Notes: generated from the letters alone by a model not told the origin. A stretch of DNA of 8,358 bases from a virus (IMGVR_UViG_2639763115_000003), one strand, 5' to 3'. Counted from the stretch's first letter, positions 1 to 8,358 are shown. Numbers and translations are program-made.

Positions 1-123
1 TTATTGACTTGCAGTTGAAGATAGTGCGCCAGTATTCGGGTCAAAGAATACCGCCCCAATAGAAATAACTGGCGCGTATGGCCCGTTGCCCATTGTTTCA
101 AGGTCAACCATCAAGTGATTCAT
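1..123 (-). CDS. DnaQ-like 3'-5' exonuclease, N-terminal fragment only (40 aa); possibly truncated or frameshifted
   Basis: Hand translation of the minus strand from ATG (plus 121-123) gives MNHLMVDLETMGNGPYAPVISIGAVFFDPNTGALSSTASQ, stopping at plus 1-3. DLETMG resembles the Exo I motif of DnaQ-like exonucleases. AAGGA lies 6 nt upstream and overlaps the ssb stop. Not in the ORF track (<60 aa). Confidence 0.35.
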   Translation of the reverse strand: MNHLMVDLETMGNGPYAPVISIGAVFFDPNTGALSSTASQ

Positions 124-131
124 GTAAGTCC

Positions 132-638
132 TTAAATTGCGTGAATAGCGTGACGAGGGAAGGGGAGAGTTACTGGTGCAAAGGGGATATCGTCGTCAAA
201 ATCCATCGGAGGTTCGTTGTGTTGTGCTGGTGATGATTGCTGCTGTGGCTTCTGTGATTGCCTGCTGGCTGCTTGTTGTTTGCTGTCGCCAATGCCGCCA
301 AGCATTTGCATCACGCCATTAATTCCGACATGAACCTCGGTTGTGTAACGGTCTTGCCCTGACTGGTCTTTCCACTTTCTGGTTCTCAGCATTCCCTCGA
401 AATAAATCTGATCACCTTTTTTCACATACTGCCCCACGACCTCAGCCAGTTTCCCGGATACAGCAACACGATGCCATTCAGTCAATTCCTTTTGCTCGCC
501 AGTATTTTTATCTCGCCATTGTTCTGACGTGGCTATTGTCAGGTTAGCGAACGCTGTTCCTGATGGTGAGTATCGAACTTCCGGGTCTTGTCCTACCCGA
601 CCAAGGATAATCACCTTATTTACGCCTCTGCTTGCCAT
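132..638 (-). CDS. ssb: Single-stranded DNA-binding protein
   Basis: 168 aa with an OB-fold-like N-terminus, a Gln/Pro-rich linker and the canonical acidic C-terminal tail DDDIPF. Its ATG directly abuts the stop of the upstream recombinase (TAAATG). Confidence 0.9.
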
Positions 639-1346
639 TTATGCCGCCTGTTTTAGTTCGTTAACTCTGATGTTCATTACCTGAACGCATTTAGCCTGCG
701 CCTCCTCGTTGCCAGCCATTAATTGCCAGTCACGCTGATAACGCTCGATGAGTTTTTTCTTGTCAGTTTCTGTTGATGCATAATCGCTGAAGTCTTTCAG
801 GATTTGTTCGCAGTCAACCGATGGAGATTTCTGGTTGGTATTTTCTGATGATGGTTTGTTATCTGATGCTGGGATTGCCCATCCCGGCAGCGATGGAGGG
901 AGCCAGTAAAATCCTGTTCCATCCTTCAGTTTTGCCCTGTGCCACCCCTGCTTTTTATCGAGAGATGTTTGTGCGAAACCTTCCTCAAGGTTATACAGAT
1001 ACCGACCGATTCCCCACTGAACGGCAGCGCGCTTCATTGCGCCGGAACGACCACCTTTGACGGCTTCTACCTGCGTGTTTTCAGCAGCATCCCATTTGGT
1101 TACCCATTCGGAATCAATCCTGATTGATATGCCGCATTCAACGCCTCCGTTGTTGGGAATATCGCGGTATTCATTGCGCCATCCTGCTTTGCCGCAAACA
1201 TCGTCCAGGCGTTTCATGATTGCCCTGTTCGTGACATAAGCCAGCACCATAGCCCACACCTTGCCATCGCGTGTTTTACCGCTTTGCTGTATTCGCCATT
1301 CGATATCTTCAGGGCTGAATGGCTCATCGAATTTATTCAAATCCAT
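639..1346 (-). CDS. Rad52-family single-strand annealing protein (Sak-like phage recombinase)
   Basis: 235 aa containing KGG..GAMKRAAVQWGIGRYLY, which resembles the Rad52/Sak annealing-protein signature. GAGGTG RBS 4 nt upstream of the ATG. Sits immediately upstream of ssb, the usual phage recombination-module arrangement. Confidence 0.75.
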   Translation of the reverse strand: MDLNKFDEPFSPEDIEWRIQQSGKTRDGKVWAMVLAYVTNRAIMKRLDDVCGKAGWRNEYRDIPNNGGVECGISIRIDSEWVTKWDAAENTQVEAVKGGRSGAMKRAAVQWGIGRYLYNLEEGFAQTSLDKKQGWHRAKLKDGTGFYWLPPSLPGWAIPASDNKPSSENTNQKSPSVDCEQILKDFSDYASTETDKKKLIERYQRDWQLMAGNEEAQAKCVQVMNIRVNELKQAA

Positions 1347-1354
1347 AATTCACC

Positions 1355-1525
1355 TCAGAATGGACATGGCCCAAGGAAATAACGCTGGTTTAATACTTCG
1401 ACTCGGGACAAATTAAGACATACCCGCATTCCTTCGCGGTCGCCATTATGGCGATACCAGAGAGCTTTCTGCGTGTACATGCGTCTCTGTAACTTGCTCT
1501 CCTTCACTGTGGTTGCAAGTGACAT
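1355..1525 (-). CDS. Hypothetical small protein (56 aa), alternative A
   Basis: Hand-translated: MSLATTVKESKLQRRMYTQKALWYRHNGDREGMRVCLNLSRVEVLNQRYFLGPCPF. GGAG RBS 6 nt upstream of the ATG; its stop lies within the RBS of the recombinase gene. Overlaps alternative B in another frame, so only one of the two may be real. Confidence 0.3.
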   Translation of the reverse strand: MSLATTVKESKLQRRMYTQKALWYRHNGDREGMRVCLNLSRVEVLNQRYFLGPCPF

Positions 1526-1604
1526 GAATATCTCCTTCGTTACCGATTAATTCTTTCATCTGACGAATGAATTCTTCGTCTGACCAGTTATCTGTAAAAC
1601 TCAT
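1446..1604 (-). CDS. Hypothetical small acidic protein (52 aa), alternative B
   Basis: Hand-translated: MSFTDNWSDEEFIRQMKELIGNEGDIHVTCNHSEGEQVTETHVHAESSLVSP. Its ATG overlaps the stop of the Kil-like ORF (ATGA). Occupies the position of P22 arf / lambda gam, just upstream of the recombinase. Confidence 0.3.
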   Translation of the reverse strand: MSFTDNWSDEEFIRQMKELIGNEGDIHVTCNHSEGEQVTETHVHAESSLVSP

Positions 1605-1753
1605 TTCCTGCGATACCACGGAAGGTTGATAGCTGATTTCATCGCTTTATTTGCTTCAAGCCACATTTTTGAATCACCAATAAATCTGGCTATTACTGCT
1701 TTGTTCTGTGCAGCACGAAGCATCTGGTGATTAATGGCTATTTCATTGCGCAT
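1601..1753 (-). CDS. kil: Kil-like small protein (50 aa), putative host cell-division inhibitor
   Basis: Hand-translated: MRNEIAINHQMLRAAQNKAVIARFIGDSKMWLEANKAMKSAINLPWYRRK. GGAGG RBS 4 nt upstream. The FIGDxKM segment matches my recollection of lambda Kil, and the position (after the cIII-like ORF, before the recombination genes) matches lambda gene order. Identity rests on memory, not a search. Confidence 0.4.
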   Translation of the reverse strand: MRNEIAINHQMLRAAQNKAVIARFIGDSKMWLEANKAMKSAINLPWYRRK

Positions 1754-1872
1754 AACGCCTCCAGTTGTTTCTTTGCTGCTCTGATTAATTGTTTAACTCG
1801 GCGTGATAATTCAGATTCGTGCGGGTAGAAAGCGGACATGACGCCGCTACCAGCTAAAATATATTCATTCAT
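1738..1872 (-). CDS. cIII: cIII-like small protein (44 aa), putative FtsH inhibitor
   Basis: Hand-translated: MNEYILAGSGVMSAFYPHESELSRRVKQLIRAAKKQLEALCAMK. Resembles lambda cIII in its N-terminal IAG motif and central amphipathic ES..L..R..K.L region. Its ATG overlaps the stop of the HNH gene (TAATGA). Confidence 0.4.
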   Translation of the reverse strand: MNEYILAGSGVMSAFYPHESELSRRVKQLIRAAKKQLEALCAMK

Positions 1873-2384
1873 TATTTGCTCCTGTAGAATTCGCCGTGAT
1901 GCTTTCTGGCAAAGTCGCAGTAAGCTTTTTTGGCATCTTCTAATTCATTAAAGTACCCTAGATGTTTTTTCTTCCCGTTTAATTTCCCATAGGCAGCCCA
2001 CTTTCTACTTTCCTTCTTCCATGTGACTCCTTTGCAACCTGATTTGTTGAGGGTGTTTATTTTACTATTCATTGAATTCTGTGAGTAAGTTGCAAGCCTC
2101 AGATTGCAAATTCTGTTATCTGTCTTTATGCCATTTATATGGTCGATAATACCTTCAGGCTCAACACCGAAAGTGATAATCCATGCAAGTCTATGTGCAG
2201 CATAGTGTCTTCCGTTAATGAAAATCCTTAAGTAGCCGCTTGTTGTTATTGTTCCGGCAGTTCCACCTATCTTCCTTGCTCCATAAGATTTTAGCCATGT
2301 GAACTCACCAGAAATAGGGTTATATTTGACAACATTATTAATCTCACTTAGGGAAATTAATTCAAGAATCTTTATAAATGCCAT
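1872..2384 (-). CDS. HNH endonuclease with C-terminal AP2 DNA-binding domain (homing-endonuclease-like)
   Basis: The ORF-track 175-aa frame begins at a TTG; the ATG five codons in has an AGGA RBS 6 nt upstream, so I call the start at 2384. HNH-like core (GYLRIFINGRHYAAHRLAWIITFG...IDHINGIKTDNRICNLRLATYSQNSMN) followed by an AP2-like segment (GVTWKKESRKWAAYGKLNGKKKHLGYFNELEDAKKAY). The gene is visibly more AT-rich than its flanks. Confidence 0.75.
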   Translation of the reverse strand: MAFIKILELISLSEINNVVKYNPISGEFTWLKSYGARKIGGTAGTITTSGYLRIFINGRHYAAHRLAWIITFGVEPEGIIDHINGIKTDNRICNLRLATYSQNSMNSKINTLNKSGCKGVTWKKESRKWAAYGKLNGKKKHLGYFNELEDAKKAYCDFARKHHGEFYRSK

Positions 2385-2477
2385 TTTATATCCTATCAAC
2401 TGCGTTCATTAATCAGCGTTTACGCTCATGAATAAACACCTCTCGTGAAGCATTATTGGTATGCGGTAAAGCCGCGC

Positions 2478-2846
2478 TCAGGCGGCTTTGATAGTCATAT
2501 CATCTGAATCAAATATTCCTGATGTATCGATATCGGTAATTCTTATTCCTTCACTACCATCCATTGGAGGCCATCCTTCCTGACCATTTCCATCATCCCA
2601 GTCGAACTCACAAACAACACCATATGCATTTAGGTCTTTTGAAATTGCTATAAGCAGAGCATGTTGCGCCAGCATGATTAATACAGCATTTAATAAAGAG
2701 CCGTGTTTATTTAGTCGGTATTCAGAGTCTGACCAGAAATTATTAATCTGGTGAAGTTTTTCCTCTGTCATTACGTCATGGTCGATTTCAATTTCTATTG
2801 ATGCTTTCCAGTCGTAATCAATGATGTATTTTTTGATGTTTGACAT
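2478..2846 (-). CDS. Hypothetical acidic protein (122 aa)
   Basis: Long ORF with AGGA about 10 nt upstream of the ATG. Strongly acidic, especially the C-terminal half (DWDDGNGQEGWPPMDGSEG...DSDD). No family recognised. Confidence 0.6.
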   Translation of the reverse strand: MSNIKKYIIDYDWKASIEIEIDHDVMTEEKLHQINNFWSDSEYRLNKHGSLLNAVLIMLAQHALLIAISKDLNAYGVVCEFDWDDGNGQEGWPPMDGSEGIRITDIDTSGIFDSDDMTIKAA

Positions 2847-2861
2847 CTATTCATTTCCTCA

Positions 2862-2892
2862 TAGATAAAAAATCGCCCTCACATAAGAGGGC
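2862..2892 (-). terminator. Rho-independent terminator in the pL operon (tL-like)
   Basis: On the minus strand: GCCCTC-TTATGT-GAGGGC hairpin (plus 2875-2892) followed by GATTTTTTATC. Lies between the 83-aa and 122-aa genes. Confidence 0.55.
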
Positions 2893-3028
2893 AAAGAAGA
2901 TTTCCAATAATCAGAACAAGTCGGCTCCTGTTTAGTTACGAGCGACATTGCTCCGTGTATTCACTCGTTGGAATGAATACACAGTGCAGTGTTTATTCTG
3001 TTGTTTGTGCCAAAAATAAAGGCCACCA

Positions 3029-3280
3029 TCAGGCAGCCTTGTTGTAAATGTTGCAGGTATCAAGTAAGTAATTAGATGGAGCGCCATAAATTATGAATTC
3101 ATCGTTTGTCGGGTCCATCTCCATCTCTTGGCCTATTGCCATTCTTGCGTCAGTGTCATCAGCGGCGAAGCATAAAACAGCCCACGCACCCATTGTTTTA
3201 AAAAGAACTGCAATTGGCTGTGGTTTTACTGAATTTGCGTTAGCGCGAAAATCATAAATCGCACTTTCATGAAATTCCAT
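3029..3280 (-). CDS. Hypothetical acidic protein (83 aa)
   Basis: ORF with GAGGTG RBS 4 nt upstream of the ATG. Net acidic. No family recognised. Confidence 0.55.
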   Translation of the reverse strand: MEFHESAIYDFRANANSVKPQPIAVLFKTMGAWAVLCFAADDTDARMAIGQEMEMDPTNDEFIIYGAPSNYLLDTCNIYNKAA

Positions 3281-3420
3281 ATCTCACCTCAAATAAGTGG
3301 TTTGCTGCCTAATTTCATTTTCTGGCGACCAACACAAGTCACACCCATTTCACTGCGTGGCTTGCGGTAGTAAAGATTGTGCCTGTCTTTTAACCACATC
3401 AGGCTCGGTGGTTCCTTCAC

Positions 3421-3477
3421 TTTCCACAGTCAAAGGAAATGGGTAGACTGTTGTTTCCACAGTCAAAAGAAGGGCTT
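3421..3477 (+). repeat. Two direct copies of TTTCCACAGTCAAA, 43 bp apart, upstream of the plus-strand small gene
   Basis: Exact 14-nt repeat at 3421-3434 and 3464-3477. Each copy holds a 9-mer matching the DnaA box TTATCCACA at 7 of 9 positions. The second copy ends 4 nt before the ATG at 3482. Confidence 0.5.
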
Positions 3478-3481
3478 TGTT

Positions 3482-3646
3482 ATGACAGATATTGTTAATC
3501 CTAAAACCAACCCACACGAAGCCGCTCAACAGATTATTGTTGAGCTTATCAGAGCCGGTAATCTTGCCCCTGGCATTGACGGAAAGCCAATCACAGTTGT
3601 TTATGAAAAAATTCTTGATGAGATTATCAGAATAAACAGTAAGTAA
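3482..3646 (+). CDS. Hypothetical small protein (54 aa) on the strand opposite the pL operon
   Basis: MTDIVNPKTNPHEAAQQIIVELIRAGNLAPGIDGKPITVVYEKILDEIIRINSK. ATG at 3482 with AGAAGGG about 8 nt upstream. The 89-aa track ORF begins at a TTG with no RBS, so the shorter form is preferred. Its stop abuts the stop of the convergent 97-aa gene (TAATTA). Confidence 0.45.
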   Translation: MTDIVNPKTNPHEAAQQIIVELIRAGNLAPGIDGKPITVVYEKILDEIIRINSK

Positions 3647-3940
3647 TTAAGAAAACAAAATTTCGAATGCCTGGCGGATGGTTGCAGCATCTTCGTTCGC
3701 CAGTTTTTTTCGTTCATCTGATGACATCGATAACAATGCATTTCTCTCAATCAATGTAGCCAGCAGTTTAGATGCTATATTTTGAACGTCAGGGCTTAAC
3801 TCTAAGAATTTATTTCGACTACGTTCGAGAATAAGTTGTGTAGCGGGTGTATCTTTTAACTCAGATATTTTTATGTCCAATACATCAAGCATTTCTTTCG
3901 TTTTCTCAATTAGTAATTGTTCAATACATGAAATATCCAT
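3647..3940 (-). CDS. Hypothetical protein (97 aa) immediately downstream of N
   Basis: Internal ATG at 3938-3940 with a GAGGT RBS lying inside the end of N; N stops 2 nt upstream. Preferred over the 125-aa track ORF, whose 5' end overlaps N. Predicted helical; no family recognised. Confidence 0.5.
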   Translation of the reverse strand: MDISCIEQLLIEKTKEMLDVLDIKISELKDTPATQLILERSRNKFLELSPDVQNIASKLLATLIERNALLSMSSDERKKLANEDAATIRQAFEILFS

Positions 3941-3942
3941 AA

Positions 3943-4215
3943 TTACCTCGCCGTCAGTTGTTTTGATTTCCGGTAGCCTGCCGCGTAAATGGCTACGTTT
4001 GGCAGGCAAATACTTCCACTGCATTCATCTGCCTTCTTGCAGCGAAGGCTTCCGAGTGATGCTGCTTTGTCTGCCCTGACGCAACCAGAGAGCTTTAGCG
4101 CAATTTTTCGCGCCAGTGCTTCATTACTGCGTCGCTCGGCAATAAGTTCTGCTCTGCGAGCTTTGTAGCGGCTTTTTGCCGTACCTTTGGATTCTTTCCA
4201 GACAATGGTTACCAT
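3943..4215 (-). CDS. N: N-type transcription antiterminator (phage 21-type arginine-rich motif)
   Basis: Contains GTAKSRYKARRAELIAERR, which matches my recollection of the phage-21 N arginine-rich boxB-binding peptide. The second ATG (MVTIVWKESKG...) has a strong AAGGAG RBS 7 nt upstream, so the start is called at 4215, not 4245. The nut sites on both sides have matching CUAACC hexaloops. Confidence 0.8.
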   Translation of the reverse strand: MVTIVWKESKGTAKSRYKARRAELIAERRSNEALARKIALKLSGCVRADKAASLGSLRCKKADECSGSICLPNVAIYAAGYRKSKQLTAR

Positions 4216-4325
4216 GATGGTCTCCTTTAAGTGGCTTTGGCGCATGACGCGTCGAGGTGCTTATCTTCTCGATCGCTGTCTTGCAGCTGCAATTCGCGCC
4301 ATCCCCAAAACCACTCAAGTTCTGG

Positions 4326-4366
4326 TCTCAACGGTTAGGTTGAGAGTCCGTCGATGTTAAAGAGCC
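4326..4366 (-). promoter_or_regulatory. nutL: boxA plus boxB hairpin
   Basis: On the minus strand: boxA GGCTCTTTAACA (plus 4355-4366), then boxB UCUCAAC-CUAACC-GUUGAGA (plus 4326-4345). Located between pL and N. Confidence 0.7.
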
Positions 4367-4404
4367 TGCCAATCTGTTCCGTTTGGCTTCCAGCGTCCTG
4401 CTGA

Positions 4405-4470
4405 TGGCTTAAATTTAAGACTTCTTAATTTATTGGTCAAGTGCATTTTTGAAGAAAACTTAATTTTATG
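4405..4470 (-). promoter_or_regulatory. oL operators and pL promoter
   Basis: P22-type 18-bp palindromic operators: ATTTAAGACTTCTTAATT (4413-4430) and a weaker TTTGAAGAAAACTTAATT (4448-4465). Candidate pL on the minus strand: -35 TTGACC (plus 4435-4440), 17-bp spacer, -10 TAAATT (plus 4412-4417). Confidence 0.55.
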
Positions 4471-4504
4471 GGCGTGAATTTAGTTTGTCTTTGATTTTTA
4501 ACGG

Positions 4505-4529
4505 GAAATAAAAAAGGGGCGAAAGCCCC
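4505..4529 (-). terminator. Rho-independent terminator immediately after the repressor gene
   Basis: GGGGCTTTCGCCCC hairpin (plus 4516-4529) followed on the minus strand by TTTTTTATTT, directly after the c2 stop codon. Confidence 0.7.
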
Positions 4530-5180
4530 TTAAGGAAGGTTTGCTAGCTTGGCATCAACGACAACGCCAATGATTTTACAGTTCCCATTGATTTCAATCA
4601 TTGGGTATTGTGGATTGAGTGGTTTCAGGAATTTTCTACCGGCATCAATAACTAACTTTTTGAATGTCGCCTCGTTTTCCCCTTCAAGTTTGGCGACTAC
4701 CAGCTTTCCATTACGTGGTTCGACTTCTGGGTCGACGAGAATAATCATCCCCTCAGGAATACTCAGTCCTGCCGGGGCAGTCATTGAATCGCCTTTAACG
4801 TCGAGCCAAAAAGAGTCTTCAGAACAATCTACCGTTGTGTCGTACCAGTTATCTATTGCACGCCTATGATATGGCTCTACAGCTTCCATCCAACATCCTG
4901 CGCTTACCCAACTAATTAGAGGATACGAACCTCTTGGATCATGCCTGCTGTGATAGGCAATGTTTGAAAGACTATCCTCTCCTTTCAACAGGTAATCAGG
5001 GGAGCACTGCAAAGCCTTGGCTAAGGCCAATAGGTTTTCGCCATTGGGCTCAGTTTCAGATCGCTCCCATTGGGAAATAGCAACATTAGACACGCCAACC
5101 ATCTTGCCAAGGGCAGCCTGCCTAATCTTGAGTTCTTTTCTGCGAGCGCGAATACGCTCACCCATCAGTTGTGTATTCAT
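4530..5180 (-). CDS. c2: Prophage repressor, P22 C2 type (cI family: N-terminal HTH, C-terminal LexA-like autocleavage domain)
   Basis: 216 aa, MNTQLMGERIRARRKELKIRQAALGKMVGVSNVAISQWERSETEPNGENLLALAKALQCSPDYLLKG... is near-identical to P22 C2 as I recall it. The SxxK-type C-terminal domain (GDSM...KL) is present. Confidence 0.92.
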   Translation of the reverse strand: MNTQLMGERIRARRKELKIRQAALGKMVGVSNVAISQWERSETEPNGENLLALAKALQCSPDYLLKGEDSLSNIAYHSRHDPRGSYPLISWVSAGCWMEAVEPYHRRAIDNWYDTTVDCSEDSFWLDVKGDSMTAPAGLSIPEGMIILVDPEVEPRNGKLVVAKLEGENEATFKKLVIDAGRKFLKPLNPQYPMIEINGNCKIIGVVVDAKLANLP

Positions 5181-5250
5181 AGTTAAGACATCTTAAATAA
5201 ACTTGACTTAAGATTCCTTTGGTGGATAATTTAAGTGTTCTTTAATTTCG
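5181..5250 (+). promoter_or_regulatory. oR operators with pR (and divergent pRM)
   Basis: P22-type operators AGTTAAGACATCTTAAAT (5181-5198) and ATTTAAGTGTTCTTTAAT (5229-5246), plus a weaker middle site. pR: -35 TTGACT (5203-5208), 16-bp spacer, -10 GATAAT (5225-5230). cro RBS GGAG at 5250-5253. Confidence 0.7.
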
Positions 5251-5260
5251 GAGCGAGTCT

Positions 5261-5446
5261 ATGTACAAAAAAGATGTTATTGACCACTTCGGAACCCAGC
5301 GTGCTGTTGCTAAAGCACTAGGCATTAGCGATGCAGCAGTCTCTCAGTGGAAAGAAGTTATCCCAGAGAAAGACGCCTATCGATTGGAAATCGTTACAGC
5401 TGGCGCCCTGAAGTATCAAGAAAGTGCTTACCGCCAAGCGGCATAA
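5261..5446 (+). CDS. cro: Cro repressor (P22 type)
   Basis: 61 aa, MYKKDVIDHFGTQRAVAKALGISDAAVSQWKEVIPEKD... is near-identical to P22 Cro as I recall it. Divergent from c2 across the operator region. Confidence 0.9.
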   Translation: MYKKDVIDHFGTQRAVAKALGISDAAVSQWKEVIPEKDAYRLEIVTAGALKYQESAYRQAA

Positions 5447-5452
5447 GCAAAT

Positions 5453-5494
5453 TGCTCTTTAACAGTTCTGGCCTTTCACCTCTAACCGGGTGAG
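5453..5494 (+). promoter_or_regulatory. nutR: boxA plus boxB hairpin
   Basis: boxA TGCTCTTTAACA (5453-5464), identical to the rrn boxA consensus. boxB UUCACCU-CUAACC-GGGUGAG (5475-5494) has the same CUAACC loop as nutL, with G-U wobble pairs at the two ends of the stem. Confidence 0.65.
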
Positions 5495-5544
5495 CAAACA
5501 TCAGCGGCAAATCCATTGGGTGTGCCGCTATAACTCAATATCAA

Positions 5545-5590
5545 TATAGGAAAATTAACAAATGGCACAAGCAAGCTACAGCAAGCCAAC
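5545..5590 (-). promoter_or_regulatory. pRE (cII-activated promoter for repressor establishment)
   Basis: On the minus strand TTGC-N6-TTGC (plus 5571-5584) lies just inside the start of the cII gene, as in lambda. Confidence 0.45.
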
Positions 5591-5858
5591 ACAGCGAGAA
5601 ATTGATCGCGCTGAAACTGATTTACTCATCAACCTGTCAACGCTTACCCAGCGCGGTCTGGCAAAGATGATTGGCTGTCATGAATCGAAGATAAGCAGAA
5701 CGGACTGGAGATTTATTGCTTCGGTCTTGTGTGCTTTCGGAATGGCATCAGACATCAGTCCGATTAGCAGGGCTTTTAAGTATGCGCTTGATGGACTCAC
5801 CAATAAAAAACGCCCGGCGGCAACCGAGCGTTCTGAACAAATCCAGATGGAATTCTGA
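5562..5858 (+). CDS. cII: cII-family transcriptional activator (P22 C1 equivalent)
   Basis: 98 aa. The C-terminus [19 protein letters not shown] matches the lambda cII C-terminus as I recall it. HTH-like segment [27 protein letters not shown] upstream. Confidence 0.85.
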
Positions 5859-5881
5859 GGGAATTACTGGATCAATCCACA
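5805..5881 (-). ncRNA. oop: oop-like antisense RNA with its terminator, overlapping the 3' end of cII
   Basis: Minus strand reads CGCTCGG-TTGCCG-CCGGGCG TTTTTTATTGGTGAG, which matches the lambda oop terminator as I recall it (hairpin at plus 5811-5830, T-run at plus 5805-5810). A candidate pO -10 CATAAT (plus 5888-5893) lies about 77 nt upstream. The 5' end is inferred, not observed. Confidence 0.5.
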
Positions 5882-5890
5882 GGAGTAATT

Positions 5891-6037
5891 ATGACAAAAC
5901 AACTCAGTCCTTACCAGGACAAAATTCACAAACACATACTACGTGATCGCTTCCTGTCCAGCTTCAAGCAGCCTGGTCGATTCCGGGCTGAGTTGGAAAA
6001 AGTGAAGCTGATGCGGAAGGAGAAAGGTCATGAGTAA
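5891..6037 (+). CDS. Hypothetical small protein (48 aa) between cII and the replication gene
   Basis: Hand-translated: [56 protein letters not shown] 4 nt upstream. Its 3' end overlaps the ATG of the O-like gene. Same position and size as the small ORF I recall in P22 (orf48). Confidence 0.5.
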
Positions 6038-6890
6038 TCTTGCAACCGTAACACATTTAAGGCCTTCACAACGGCCTGTGGAGCGTCGTGTGGCAGAAGT
6101 TGAAGATGGTTATACCCGTCTTGCAAATGCCCTGTATGAAGAGCTTATCGGCGCTGATTTAACGAAAAATCAGAGCAAGGTTGCCCACGCCATATGCCGT
6201 AAAACATACGGCTACGGTAAAAAGATGGATCGCATCTCTGATAGTCAGTTAGCTCAAATTACCAGGCTGCCAAGACAGAAGGTAAACAAGGCCAAGAATG
6301 AGCTTATCGCGATGAAGGTTATCCTTCGCGAAGGCCAGCAAATCGGGCCTAACAAGAACATCGAGGAATGGCAAATCGAAGGGTGTCACTACTCTGGTGA
6401 TAATGTCACTACATTGGTGACAAAAAGTGTCACCAAAACGGTGACAGCGCTGTCACCAAAACAGGGACACACAAAAGAAACTATTACAAAAGAAAAAAGA
6501 AATAATAAAAACACTATGTCCGAAAGTGTTCGGACTGAGTGTGAAAAATCACCTGACCGTCACGAAGAAACCGACAAGGCATTCGAGGAAATATTCTGGT
6601 GTGCAGGCATGCGGAAAGCCGGGAAGAAAAACGCAGCTTCAGCATTCAGAACACAGTTCAGGGAATGGCGTAAAACTACCAGGGGTACGGCAAGCGAGTT
6701 TGCCACGATGCTGGCAGAAGACATCGCATGCAGGAATGGTAAGCAGTTCGGATTCGACAGGTTGTTACCATCGAGCTATCTGAACGGTCAACGCTGGAAC
6801 GACGAGAAGCCAGAAACTATTCAACCACAATCCAAACCATCATCCGCAATCACCGTATCGAAAACTGGCTACGTGTTTTTCGACAGGTGA
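6030..6890 (+). CDS. O: Replication initiator, lambda O / P22 gene 18 family
   Basis: 286 aa with AAGGAG RBS. The N-terminal region ([12 protein letters not shown]...[35 protein letters not shown]) looks like an O-type origin-binding domain, and the iteron origin lies within the gene. The C-terminal domain differs from lambda O. Confidence 0.75.
6380..6520 (+). repeat. Replication origin inside the O-like gene: iterons plus A-rich tract
   Basis: Repeated GTCAC/GTGAC-containing units between 6382 and 6470, including the direct repeat TGTCACCAAAAC (6428-6439 and 6451-6462, 23-bp period) and the inverted pair TGTCACC/GGTGACA. Followed by an A-rich tract (6470-6515). Confidence 0.65.
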
Positions 6891-6893
6891 ACC

Positions 6894-7001
6894 ATGAAAT
6901 CAAAAATCAAATCGCTACTGGTCGCTGGTTATAACCACGGCTGGTTAAGTATTTCGTTTGTCAATTTCTGGTTTAAAAATCTCAATCTGAGGGAATCATG
7001 A
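6894..7001 (+). CDS. Hypothetical small hydrophobic peptide (35 aa)
   Basis: Hand-translated: [44 protein letters not shown] 3 nt upstream. Its stop overlaps the ATG of the downstream primase-like gene (ATGA). Confidence 0.3.
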
Positions 7002-7897
7002 CGCCAAGTGAACTTAGCGACCTGCTTTGGGCGCAGGTTGACAGGGTGGCTCCGCACCTGTTGCCAAACGGCAAGAAAGAGGGGCATGAGTGGGTTGCCG
7101 GTAACGTCAACGGTGACAAGGGAAACAGCCTTAAGGTCAACCTTAGCGGCAAGAAAAAATGGGCTGATTTCGCTGAGGGAGACGGCGGTGACATGCTTGA
7201 TTTGTGGATGGCATGCCGTGGAATTAACCTGCATCAGGCTATGCAGGAAGCGAAAGCATTTCTCGGTATCAAGGATGACGATCACCATTTCGATGCCAAA
7301 CGTGAGAAGAAATTCTCCAGACCTGATCGCAAGAAAATCGCCCGCTACGTTACCAGAACAGAATCCCATCTTGAGTACCTGCAATCGCGTGGCATATCGC
7401 CAGAAGTCGTAAAGCGCTACGAGGTTGTCAGCGGCAAGGTGTGGAATGGAGAACGAGAACTGGATGCTCTGGTGATTCCGTACAAACGCGATGGTGAGTT
7501 GTTGCAGGTCAAGCGAATCAGCACTGAGCGCCCGGACGGGAAGAAAGTCATTATGGCAGAAGGTGATTGCGAACCTTGTCTGTTCGGATGGCAGGCTCTG
7601 GACGCTGGCGTGAGGGCGGTTGTACTTTGCGAAGGCGAAATTGATTGTATGAGCTATGCGCAATACGGCATCTCGGCGTTAAGGACGATTGGAGCAACTG
7701 CGACTCTTGGTGTATCAATGGGGCTTGAGGCTGGTTTTGGTGCAATTATGCGCTTGTATGAATCCAAAGCCGCAAGGGATATGCTTCTTCGTTTGGCTAA
7801 CACAAAAGCAGGAACACCAGCCTATGAAAGAGCGCTAAATAATGCTGCGAATGCTATACGTCCTATACTTGCAAGCCAAATTACAGCAGAACAATAG
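6998..7897 (+). CDS. Primase-like protein with a partial Toprim domain; probably truncated or fused at a deletion junction
   Basis: 299 aa. N-terminal primase-like region ([37 protein letters not shown]) and Toprim motif 1 ([18 protein letters not shown]) are present, but the expected downstream DxD motif is absent. The last 60 or so residues are Ala-rich and unrelated. No helicase gene follows. Confidence 0.6.
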
Positions 7898-7948
7898 AAT
7901 AAATAATTAACTAAGCACATAACCACTGAAAGATAACAAACGCAACGA

Positions 7949-7970
7949 CCCAGCTTCGGCTGGGTTTTTT
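7949..7970 (+). terminator. Rho-independent terminator
   Basis: CCCAGC-TTCG-GCTGGG hairpin followed by TTTTTT on the plus strand. Confidence 0.7.
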
Positions 7971-8028
7971 ATGCCCAAAATTCACCGTAGCCACTCAGCG
8001 ACGTTTCCTTGTATCTGGAGCAAATTAA

Positions 8029-8358
8029 ATGACAGACATTACAGCCAATGTTGTAGTGAGTATGCCTTCGCAACTCTTCACTATGGCGCGTTCTTTTAAA
8101 GCCGTAGCCAATGGAAAAATTTATATCGGTAAAATTGACACTGATCCGGTAAATCCTGAAAACCAGATTCCAGTATATCTGGAACGAGAAGACGGCACTC
8201 ATGTTCAAGTGTCACAACCAATCGTTATAAATGCTGCCGGATATCCGGTATATAACGGACAGATTGCCAAGTTCGTAACTGTGCAAGGCCATTCTATGGC
8301 TGTTTATGATGCGTATGGTTCGCAGCAGTTCTATTTTCCCAATGTGCTGAAGTATGAT
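8029..8358 (+). CDS. Tailspike protein, N-terminal head-binding domain (P22 gp9 family); partial, runs off the window
   Basis: [50 protein letters not shown]...[28 protein letters not shown] closely matches the N-terminus of P22 tailspike as I recall it. GGAG RBS upstream. The frame is open to the window end. Confidence 0.85.

Follow-up and report, generated by a model that had tools for sequence, protein, structure and literature searches.

What gene stands between the replication genes and the tailspike of this P22-like element, and how did the two come to be neighbours? In the 8,358-nt stretch of DNA analysed here (the window), an O-type replication initiator gene (6030-6890) is followed by an ORF of 299 codons on the plus strand (6998-7897), annotated in RefSeq as a 'toprim domain-containing protein' (WP_072039592.1), and then, after a spacer of 131 nt, by the start of a tailspike gene on the same strand (8029-8358; head-binding domain, Pfam Head_binding 5e-65), which continues past the window end. 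A sequence-only reading had noted that the replication module runs into the tailspike, with coordinates and a description that proved right, and had proposed a large internal deletion in a defective prophage.

Composition of the 299-codon ORF

Searched separately, the two parts of the ORF match different genes, the first a primase-helicase and the second a gp16-type late gene. The first 228 of 626 primase-helicase codons (6998-7681, plus strand) are 99.1% identical to nt 1-684 of Sf101 gp45, after which the similarity stops, and residues 1-228 share 99% identity with the N-termini of both the 626-aa Sf101 gp45 and BL12 WP_001331794. The last 71 codons and the stop (7682-7897, plus strand) derive from a region equivalent to the gp16-tailspike region of BL12, with 91% nucleotide identity that runs unbroken through the tailspike start. 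Residues 229-299 (...ITAEQ) correspond to the last 71 residues of the 613-aa BL12 gp16-type DNA transfer protein in their own frame, and gp16 codon 543 is fused in frame to primase-helicase codon 228. In intact prophages such as BL12 the gp16-type gene directly precedes the tailspike, and a precomputed Pfam match to PF26808 (Phage_P22_gp16) is on record for the chimera. The sequence-only reading had suspected that an Ala-rich C-terminal stretch of about 60 residues was foreign and fused in frame at residue 230/231, with an ejection protein or ant as the donor. The foreign origin, the fusion and the frame stand, as does the ejection protein; the foreign part is 71 residues long, the junction lies at 228/229 and Ant drops out as the donor.

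The intact 626-aa protein combines Toprim_2 with AAA_25/DnaB_C, the helicase domain occupying residues 355-594 in Sf101 gp45. As had been read from the window, the chimera carries the first Toprim motif only: the Toprim glutamate motif (CEGEID) is kept and the DxD motif (SMDVDDVG) lies past the break. Pfam Toprim_2 covers the chimera weakly and in part, in an alignment that runs on into the gp16 portion, and the Pfam matches on the chimera include no AAA_25 or DnaB_C, the helicase domain with its Walker A motif being absent. Residues 1-228 thus resemble the N-terminal region of T7 gp4 and Twinkle-type primase-helicases (Toprim_2 plus DnaB_C) with its first Toprim motif; unlike these, the chimera has neither DxD motif nor helicase domain, so it does not count as a functional member of that group. 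Because these parts are missing, the fusion protein is presumably without function. With regard to the gp16 side, the full ejection protein (~610 aa, after gp7 and gp20) is not kept, as 71 residues remain and gp7 and gp20 are gone. Judged from these comparisons, the 299-aa ORF is an in-frame primase::gp16 chimera, a deletion scar rather than a gene in its own right.

The ORF is intact, in frame and annotated in RefSeq as an ordinary protein, as would be expected of a genuine, conserved short primase-like gene of intact phages in its natural layout. Proteins that span the whole N-terminal part, however, either go on as the 626-aa primase-helicase or end in some other foreign tail, those covering the C-terminal 71 aa are gp16 or other chimeras, and the element is devoid of any morphogenetic gene. 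A full-length homologue with the same C-terminus was looked for by protein search and none turned up in any intact phage; identical 299-aa proteins occur only in the same torS-torT remnant of closely related isolates. A native short gene is, in our view, very improbable.

Even less credit is due to the idea that two prophage fragments were misjoined during assembly. It could draw on the origin of the window from a single complete genome and on the occurrence of the arrangement in just 1 of 5,426 complete E. coli genomes, but the joint and its flanks are identical in three other assemblies or runs of different dates, one of them a 2014-era accession, and a 2-bp overlap offers no repeat able to mislead an assembler. 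These three (GCA_043185435.1, GCA_000812765.1 and SRR8613816) carry the same chimera in the same context and differ from the window, in this order, by 7 substitutions and one gap in 20.9 kb, by 2 substitutions in 11.4 kb and by 0 in 3.9 kb. Since the identical joint is found in three more assemblies, it is not an assembly error; it is real and inherited, and marks a single narrow clone.

Two deletions in a torS-torT prophage

A three-way alignment together with a base-level comparison puts the internal joint at 7680-7681, where the parents, GGCGTTA^TCCGTG in the primase gene and CAGGATA^AGGACG in gp16, overlap by 2 bp (TA). In the alignment, the primase parent reads ...GGCATCTCGGCGTTA|TCCGTG..., the gp16 parent ...CAACAGGATA|AGGACGATTGG... 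and the window ...GGCGTTA|AGGACGATTGG..., with only TA (7680-7681) shared by both parents. Database matches change partner at the same point. With the whole window as query, 7681 is the last matching position for Sf101, mEp043 and hundreds of E. coli prophages (7678 for ES18), and with 7640-8358 as query the match from 7680 onward is to a gp16-family ejection gene and then the tailspike of E. coli prophages, at 88-91% identity.

The intact P22-like prophage of BL12 at argW carries both parent genes. The interval between the breakpoints of the parents measures 20,546 bp on BL12 (argW prophage) and 21,195 bp on strain 165 (torS-torT prophage). The size is given as a range because these phages are mosaic: the right arm of the element is BL12-like, and its early region is like mEp235 and strain 165. 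On BL12, the missing interval holds 26 whole genes and two partial ones, including ninB, a methyltransferase gene, ninE, ninF, the genes for an antirepressor, RusA, holin, endolysin and Rz, and those for terminase, portal, scaffold, coat, gp4, gp10, needle, gp14, gp7 and gp20. The alignments to these intact prophages, by which the breakpoint was positioned, bear out the proposed large internal deletion as a single event. We consider it almost certain that one illegitimate deletion in a Lederbergvirus-type P22-like prophage at torS-torT made the ORF. It removed ~20.5-21.2 kb, comprising the helicase half of the primase-helicase gene, the nin region, the late-gene activator, the lysis, packaging and head genes and most of gp16.

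The whole window is 100% identical to the chromosome of E. coli 2017-02-2CC (NZ_AP027764.1, 3062655-3071012, reverse strand). Once 20 kb of flanking DNA on either side is included (L001), the gene order starts with yccM, a torS 3' fragment, a 3'-5' exonuclease stub and ssb; continues with a Rad52/Erf-type annealase gene, kil, cIII, an HNH endonuclease gene, DUF2528, N, cI, cro, cII, DUF2740 and O; and ends with the 299-aa ORF, the gene for the 733-aa tailspike, that for a 653-aa AT3+SGNH acyltransferase, which is read from the other strand, a short partial ORF and torT. The phage-derived stretch measures ~12.5 kb between torS' and torT. Its retained early region (132-6890) was delimited from ORFs, RefSeq products, precomputed Pfam matches and the identity of the immunity region, and contains, apart from O, ssb, the annealase gene, kil, cIII, the HNH gene, DUF2528, N, cI (imm21-like, 216 aa), cro, cII and DUF2740, with a cI-cro-cII region 98% identical to mEp235 and phage 21. 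The annotation from torS' to torT, inspected for surviving head or lysis genes, holds none, nor any nin, packaging, late activator or complete ejection genes. The element therefore fits the earlier description of a defective prophage that keeps cI, N, recombination genes and a receptor-binding protein, the tailspike.

The gene order of the element follows that of intact P22-like prophages throughout, and the place it occupies is known as an attachment locus. Strain 165 carries such a prophage intact between torS and torT, with torS whole and int and xis adjoining, and the tailspike adjoins torT in many other strains, including LF82 and NRG857C, which makes torS-torT a regular attachment locus. 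A phage satellite (PICI or P4-like) was considered and rejected, as the element lacks an integrase and any packaging-related genes, has its replication gene truncated and is collinear with a decayed P22-like phage.

Downstream of the joint, the native gp16-tailspike arrangement is preserved. The spacer holds an intrinsic terminator (7947-7974, plus strand), whose stem-loop and T-run a terminator scan placed at 7947-7966, and the equivalent site is annotated 'terminator' in HK620 and epsilon34. The tailspike gene is intact with 733 codons and is followed on the opposite strand by the intact acyltransferase gene (Pfam Acyl_transf_3 and SGNH).

Two findings go beyond the sequence-only reading, namely a second deletion at the left end and a breakpoint position that appears not to be random. 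At the left end, the host torS 3' fragment (Hpt domain; 1-34, minus strand; RefSeq) is 97% identical to the torS 3' end of strain 165, in a match that ends at window position 34. The match of strain 165 to the phage 3'-5' exonuclease gene, of which an N-terminal stub of ~32 codons remains (29-123, minus strand, partial CDS), begins at 29. Base-level comparison with both strain 165 parents places the joint at 32-34, with the overlap GTA: torS ...GCGCCAGTA is joined to exonuclease ...GGTATTCGGG, the parents torS ...GCGCCAGTA|ACTGACC and exonuclease ...CTCCGGTA|TTCGGG giving GCGCCAGTATTCGGG. This second deletion, independent of the internal one, took out 6,548 bp in strain 165 coordinates (~6.5 kb). 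With it went attL, int, xis, the ea genes, the anti-RecBCD gene, most of the exonuclease gene and, at ~2.4 kb, most of torS, so that neither integrase nor excisionase is left in the torS-torT element. The element is doubly defective and, from its gene content, probably unable to excise, replicate or form particles. Furthermore, as torS is cut to its last 372 bp (L001 19667-20038), the lineage should lack TorS-dependent induction of torCAD.

Several further features of the locus were observed. In the N region, the annotated ORFs for a 125-aa hypothetical protein and for the N-peptide antiterminator (3647-4024 and 3943-4215, minus strand) overlap by ~80 nt. The free-standing HNH_3 + AP2 endonuclease gene between cIII and DUF2528 (1872-2399, minus strand; product WP_000874115.1) looks like a mobile homing-type insertion; it is missing from the otherwise collinear prophages of TW10590 and strain 165 and present in L012. 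Between the acyltransferase gene and torT, 120 bp (L001 32380-32499) are 91% identical to the intS 3' end of argW-type prophages. As the same fragment is also found in the intact prophage of strain 165, an argW-type phage seems to be the source of the right arm of the torS-torT prophages. Finally, gfcD is truncated and frameshifted directly beside ymcE in the strain of the window (L001 16151-18310, compared with L011 44856-49501), and in strain 165 ymcF, cspG, cspH, gfcA, gfcB and gfcC stand between the two; this loss is a separate chromosomal deletion ~2 kb from the prophage remnant.

Recurrent breakpoints in the primase-helicase gene

The protein search with the chimera, which was not designed as a survey, returned nothing longer than 521 aa and hence a sample rich in truncated and fused proteins. 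Mapped on the intact primase, 21 of the matches consist of a primase N-terminus followed by an unrelated tail, and 14 of these break at just four residues: 118 (P0032-P0035), 127 (P0026 and P0030), 228 (the window, P0001, P0002, P0006, P0010 and P0037) and 300 (P0007 and P0011). The partner differs in each and may be coat, the start or the middle of gp7, two kinds of gp16, a side tail fibre, a Dam methylase, terminase, a myovirus tail chaperone or others. The contigs retrieved show that the carrier prophages have differing repressors and gene sets as well, so the events are independent. At the DNA level, the four breaks lie at gene nt 355, 380, 684 and 901 (GTTACC, AGTACC, GTTATCC and GTTACC, respectively) and are exactly the four matches to TA-Y(0-3)-CC among the 27 TA dinucleotides of nt 1-940; clustering this strong was reached in no simulation run. 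Two more TA(Y)CC sites lie further along the gene, at nt 979 and 1215, and the O gene has a GTTACC at nt 735-740. With regard to the overlaps, TA is kept at 12 of the 13 joints with known parents (as TA, TAC, TACC, TATC or GTA), the remaining one keeping A only. Of 11 right-hand sites, 5 show the motif on the opposite strand, where the background rate is ~0.1 (P = 0.004). The joint of the window comes from such a pair, its left site reading TTA|TCC on the top strand and its right site reading the same on the bottom strand.

We give an even chance to the reading that the gene contains four fragile TA(Y)CC sites, window position 7681 among them, at which a sequence- and strand-specific discontinuity would start deletions. 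Besides the clustering, the retained TA, the inverted motif and the different immunity regions of the carriers, it can call on two complete genomes that use such sites with the other side retained: LR-03 has ...CTTGTA|CCAGAA at primase nt 354, with the CC side kept, and the tailspike remnant of VE-F10 starts with TTACCC, also on the CC side. Against it stand the origin of the chimeras from one protein search limited to matches of up to 521 aa, the derivation of the motif after the data had been seen and the several right-hand sites that do not carry the motif. Moreover, ordinary microhomology that does not contain TA is seen at the singleton breakpoints and at further joints of these remnants, and the nuclease or primer start is hypothetical. 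For the O gene, the protein search gave just one foreign-tail fusion (P0225) and one internally deleted in-frame O protein (P0224), neither at a motif site. Searches with the full-length primase and O proteins were dominated by full-length proteins and added almost no chimeras. Within this non-survey sample, the motif-bound recurrence is well supported as a pattern. We extend it tentatively, at somewhat less than an even chance, to the general proposal that TA(Y)CC sites (often GTTACC or GTTATCC) are broken repeatedly in P22-like and related lambdoid prophages of Enterobacteria, by an as yet undescribed mechanism of decay that would be sequence- and strand-specific. The literature searches made turned up no report of recurrent breakpoints in this primase-helicase gene.

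As for how a fragile site might work, the strand with the motif would be interrupted just 3' of TA, a replication fork that reached the interruption would shed an arm with a ...TA-3' end, and the self-complementary TA would let two of these arms pair and give the deletion joint. An interruption 3' of TA would be expected to produce what is seen, a terminal TA and, on the deleted side, a constant asymmetric motif that is often inverted between the two ends. The source might be a phage-encoded HNH-type nickase, a junction-resolving enzyme or the primer starts of a primase. Candidates are, for the first, a nickase with a short site, since these phages carry several HNH genes, the one at 1872-2399 being an example; for the second, RusA, encoded in the deleted nin region, which cuts 5' of CC; for the third, primer starts of the T7-gp4-like primase itself, given that T7 primers begin with pppACC. 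Paired site-specific nicks, or fork collapse at nicks, would similarly place one endpoint at a short asymmetric motif, and share with the present joints the inversion of the motif between the ends, which about half of the events show, and the tiny self-complementary TA overlap. They differ in that the nickase is hypothetical here and the fit of the motif at the second site is imperfect.

Other causes were considered and rejected. No IS or transposase is present at any of the 13 joints inspected, which speaks against IS-mediated deletion, and no longer hidden homology exists between the parents beyond 1-4 bp. An integron-type G|TT crossover and a 4-bp gyrase-type stagger both conflict with the flanking bases that survive in the products. 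Likenesses to DnaA boxes, REP arms, IS target sites and gix/hix half-sites disagreed with the position of the cut.

An intein or homing site was likewise discarded, as the insertions that occur in this gene lie away from the hot spots. One, found in O157:H7 Z570 (L019 2613-3636) and many O157 and O111 genomes, interrupts Walker A (GHGK|T) at nt 1112 with 1,026 bp in frame; it starts around ...ACPLNEP, ends ...HN|T, gives a 968-aa annotated protein and looks like an intein. The other is a NUMOD4+HNH gene inserted in L026 (5009-5508) at the very start of the primase gene, where it replaces 8 bp. L026 carries a second HNH gene between scaffold and coat (7844-8419), and the two insertions suggest that homing-endonuclease genes move around within this phage group.

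Additional remnants and fusions were found in the course of these searches. LR-03 (L020 3861-9903) is a heavily eroded argW remnant with at least three internal joints, in which a 151-bp primase island (nt 354-504) lies between an ERF fragment and a gp16-like fragment. The deletion joint of VE-F10 reads ...GCCA|TTACCCATCC, another TTACC site. The L012-type joint was not found among complete E. coli genomes. In-frame fusions of other proteins (O, Q, Ant, a lysis protein, gp20 or gp7) to a gp16 C-terminus were seen in P0065, P0067, P0069, P0072, P0073, P0075, P0076 and P0078, with a different gp16 break position each time. In view of their number, it seems that decaying P22-like prophages commonly end up with a deletion that stops just upstream of the tailspike.

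Persistence of the remnant and its meaning

The element is a cryptic prophage and an ordinary decay product of a P22-like phage. The intact prophages of strain 165 and BL12 and the phages Sf101, HK620 and CUS-3 have the same gene order and 88-99% nucleotide identity over the retained parts, and supply the 'before' state of both parent genes; in contrast to the element, they have not lost int and xis, nor the 20-21 kb with the nin, lysis and morphogenesis genes. The cryptic lambdoid prophages DLP12, Rac, Qin and KplE1/CPS-53 were likewise turned into chromosomal remnants by internal and terminal deletions, keep regulatory, recombination and conversion genes and do not form particles. The present element differs from them in its origin from a P22-like podovirus at torS-torT, its complete tailspike, its primase::gp16 ORF and its limitation to one narrow clone.

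That the remnant persists by domestication, some of its parts being useful to the host (the candidates are repressor immunity, the O-antigen acyltransferase and possibly the tailspike), is in our view less likely than not. Such a use would be consistent with cI, tailspike and acyltransferase genes that are all full length according to ORFs, annotation and Pfam, and with the many independent remnants that keep a tailspike and a modification gene. One of these, a smaller argW remnant in VE-F10 (L028 3874-7434) and four other complete genomes, five in all, with torI and a few ea genes, lies beside intS and tRNA-Arg; it has the identical acyltransferase (WP_021544677.1) and the 3' two-thirds of the tailspike gene, devoid of the first 760 nt, at 99.6% identity. 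Its retained acyltransferase fits selection for a conversion gene, but a recent origin explains it equally well. Similarly, the carriers of the present element differ by few substitutions in 20 kb, so their intact genes may reflect a recent event, and the benefit of immunity or of the acyltransferase is a candidate one. The imm21-type repressor, intact like its operator region, probably still confers immunity, and the acyltransferase would be the part most likely kept by selection.

In this case, two microhomology deletions left an in-frame fusion that is annotated as a normal 'toprim domain-containing protein', which calls for caution in annotation, and the remnant illustrates what tends to stay, namely immunity, the tailspike and the O-antigen acyltransferase. 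The unexpected part is the repeated use of the four TA(Y)CC positions by unrelated prophages. If specific nicking or priming at TA(Y)CC were confirmed, prophage inactivation would be partly sequence-programmed rather than random, and these sites would make illegitimate recombination in E. coli directly accessible to testing.
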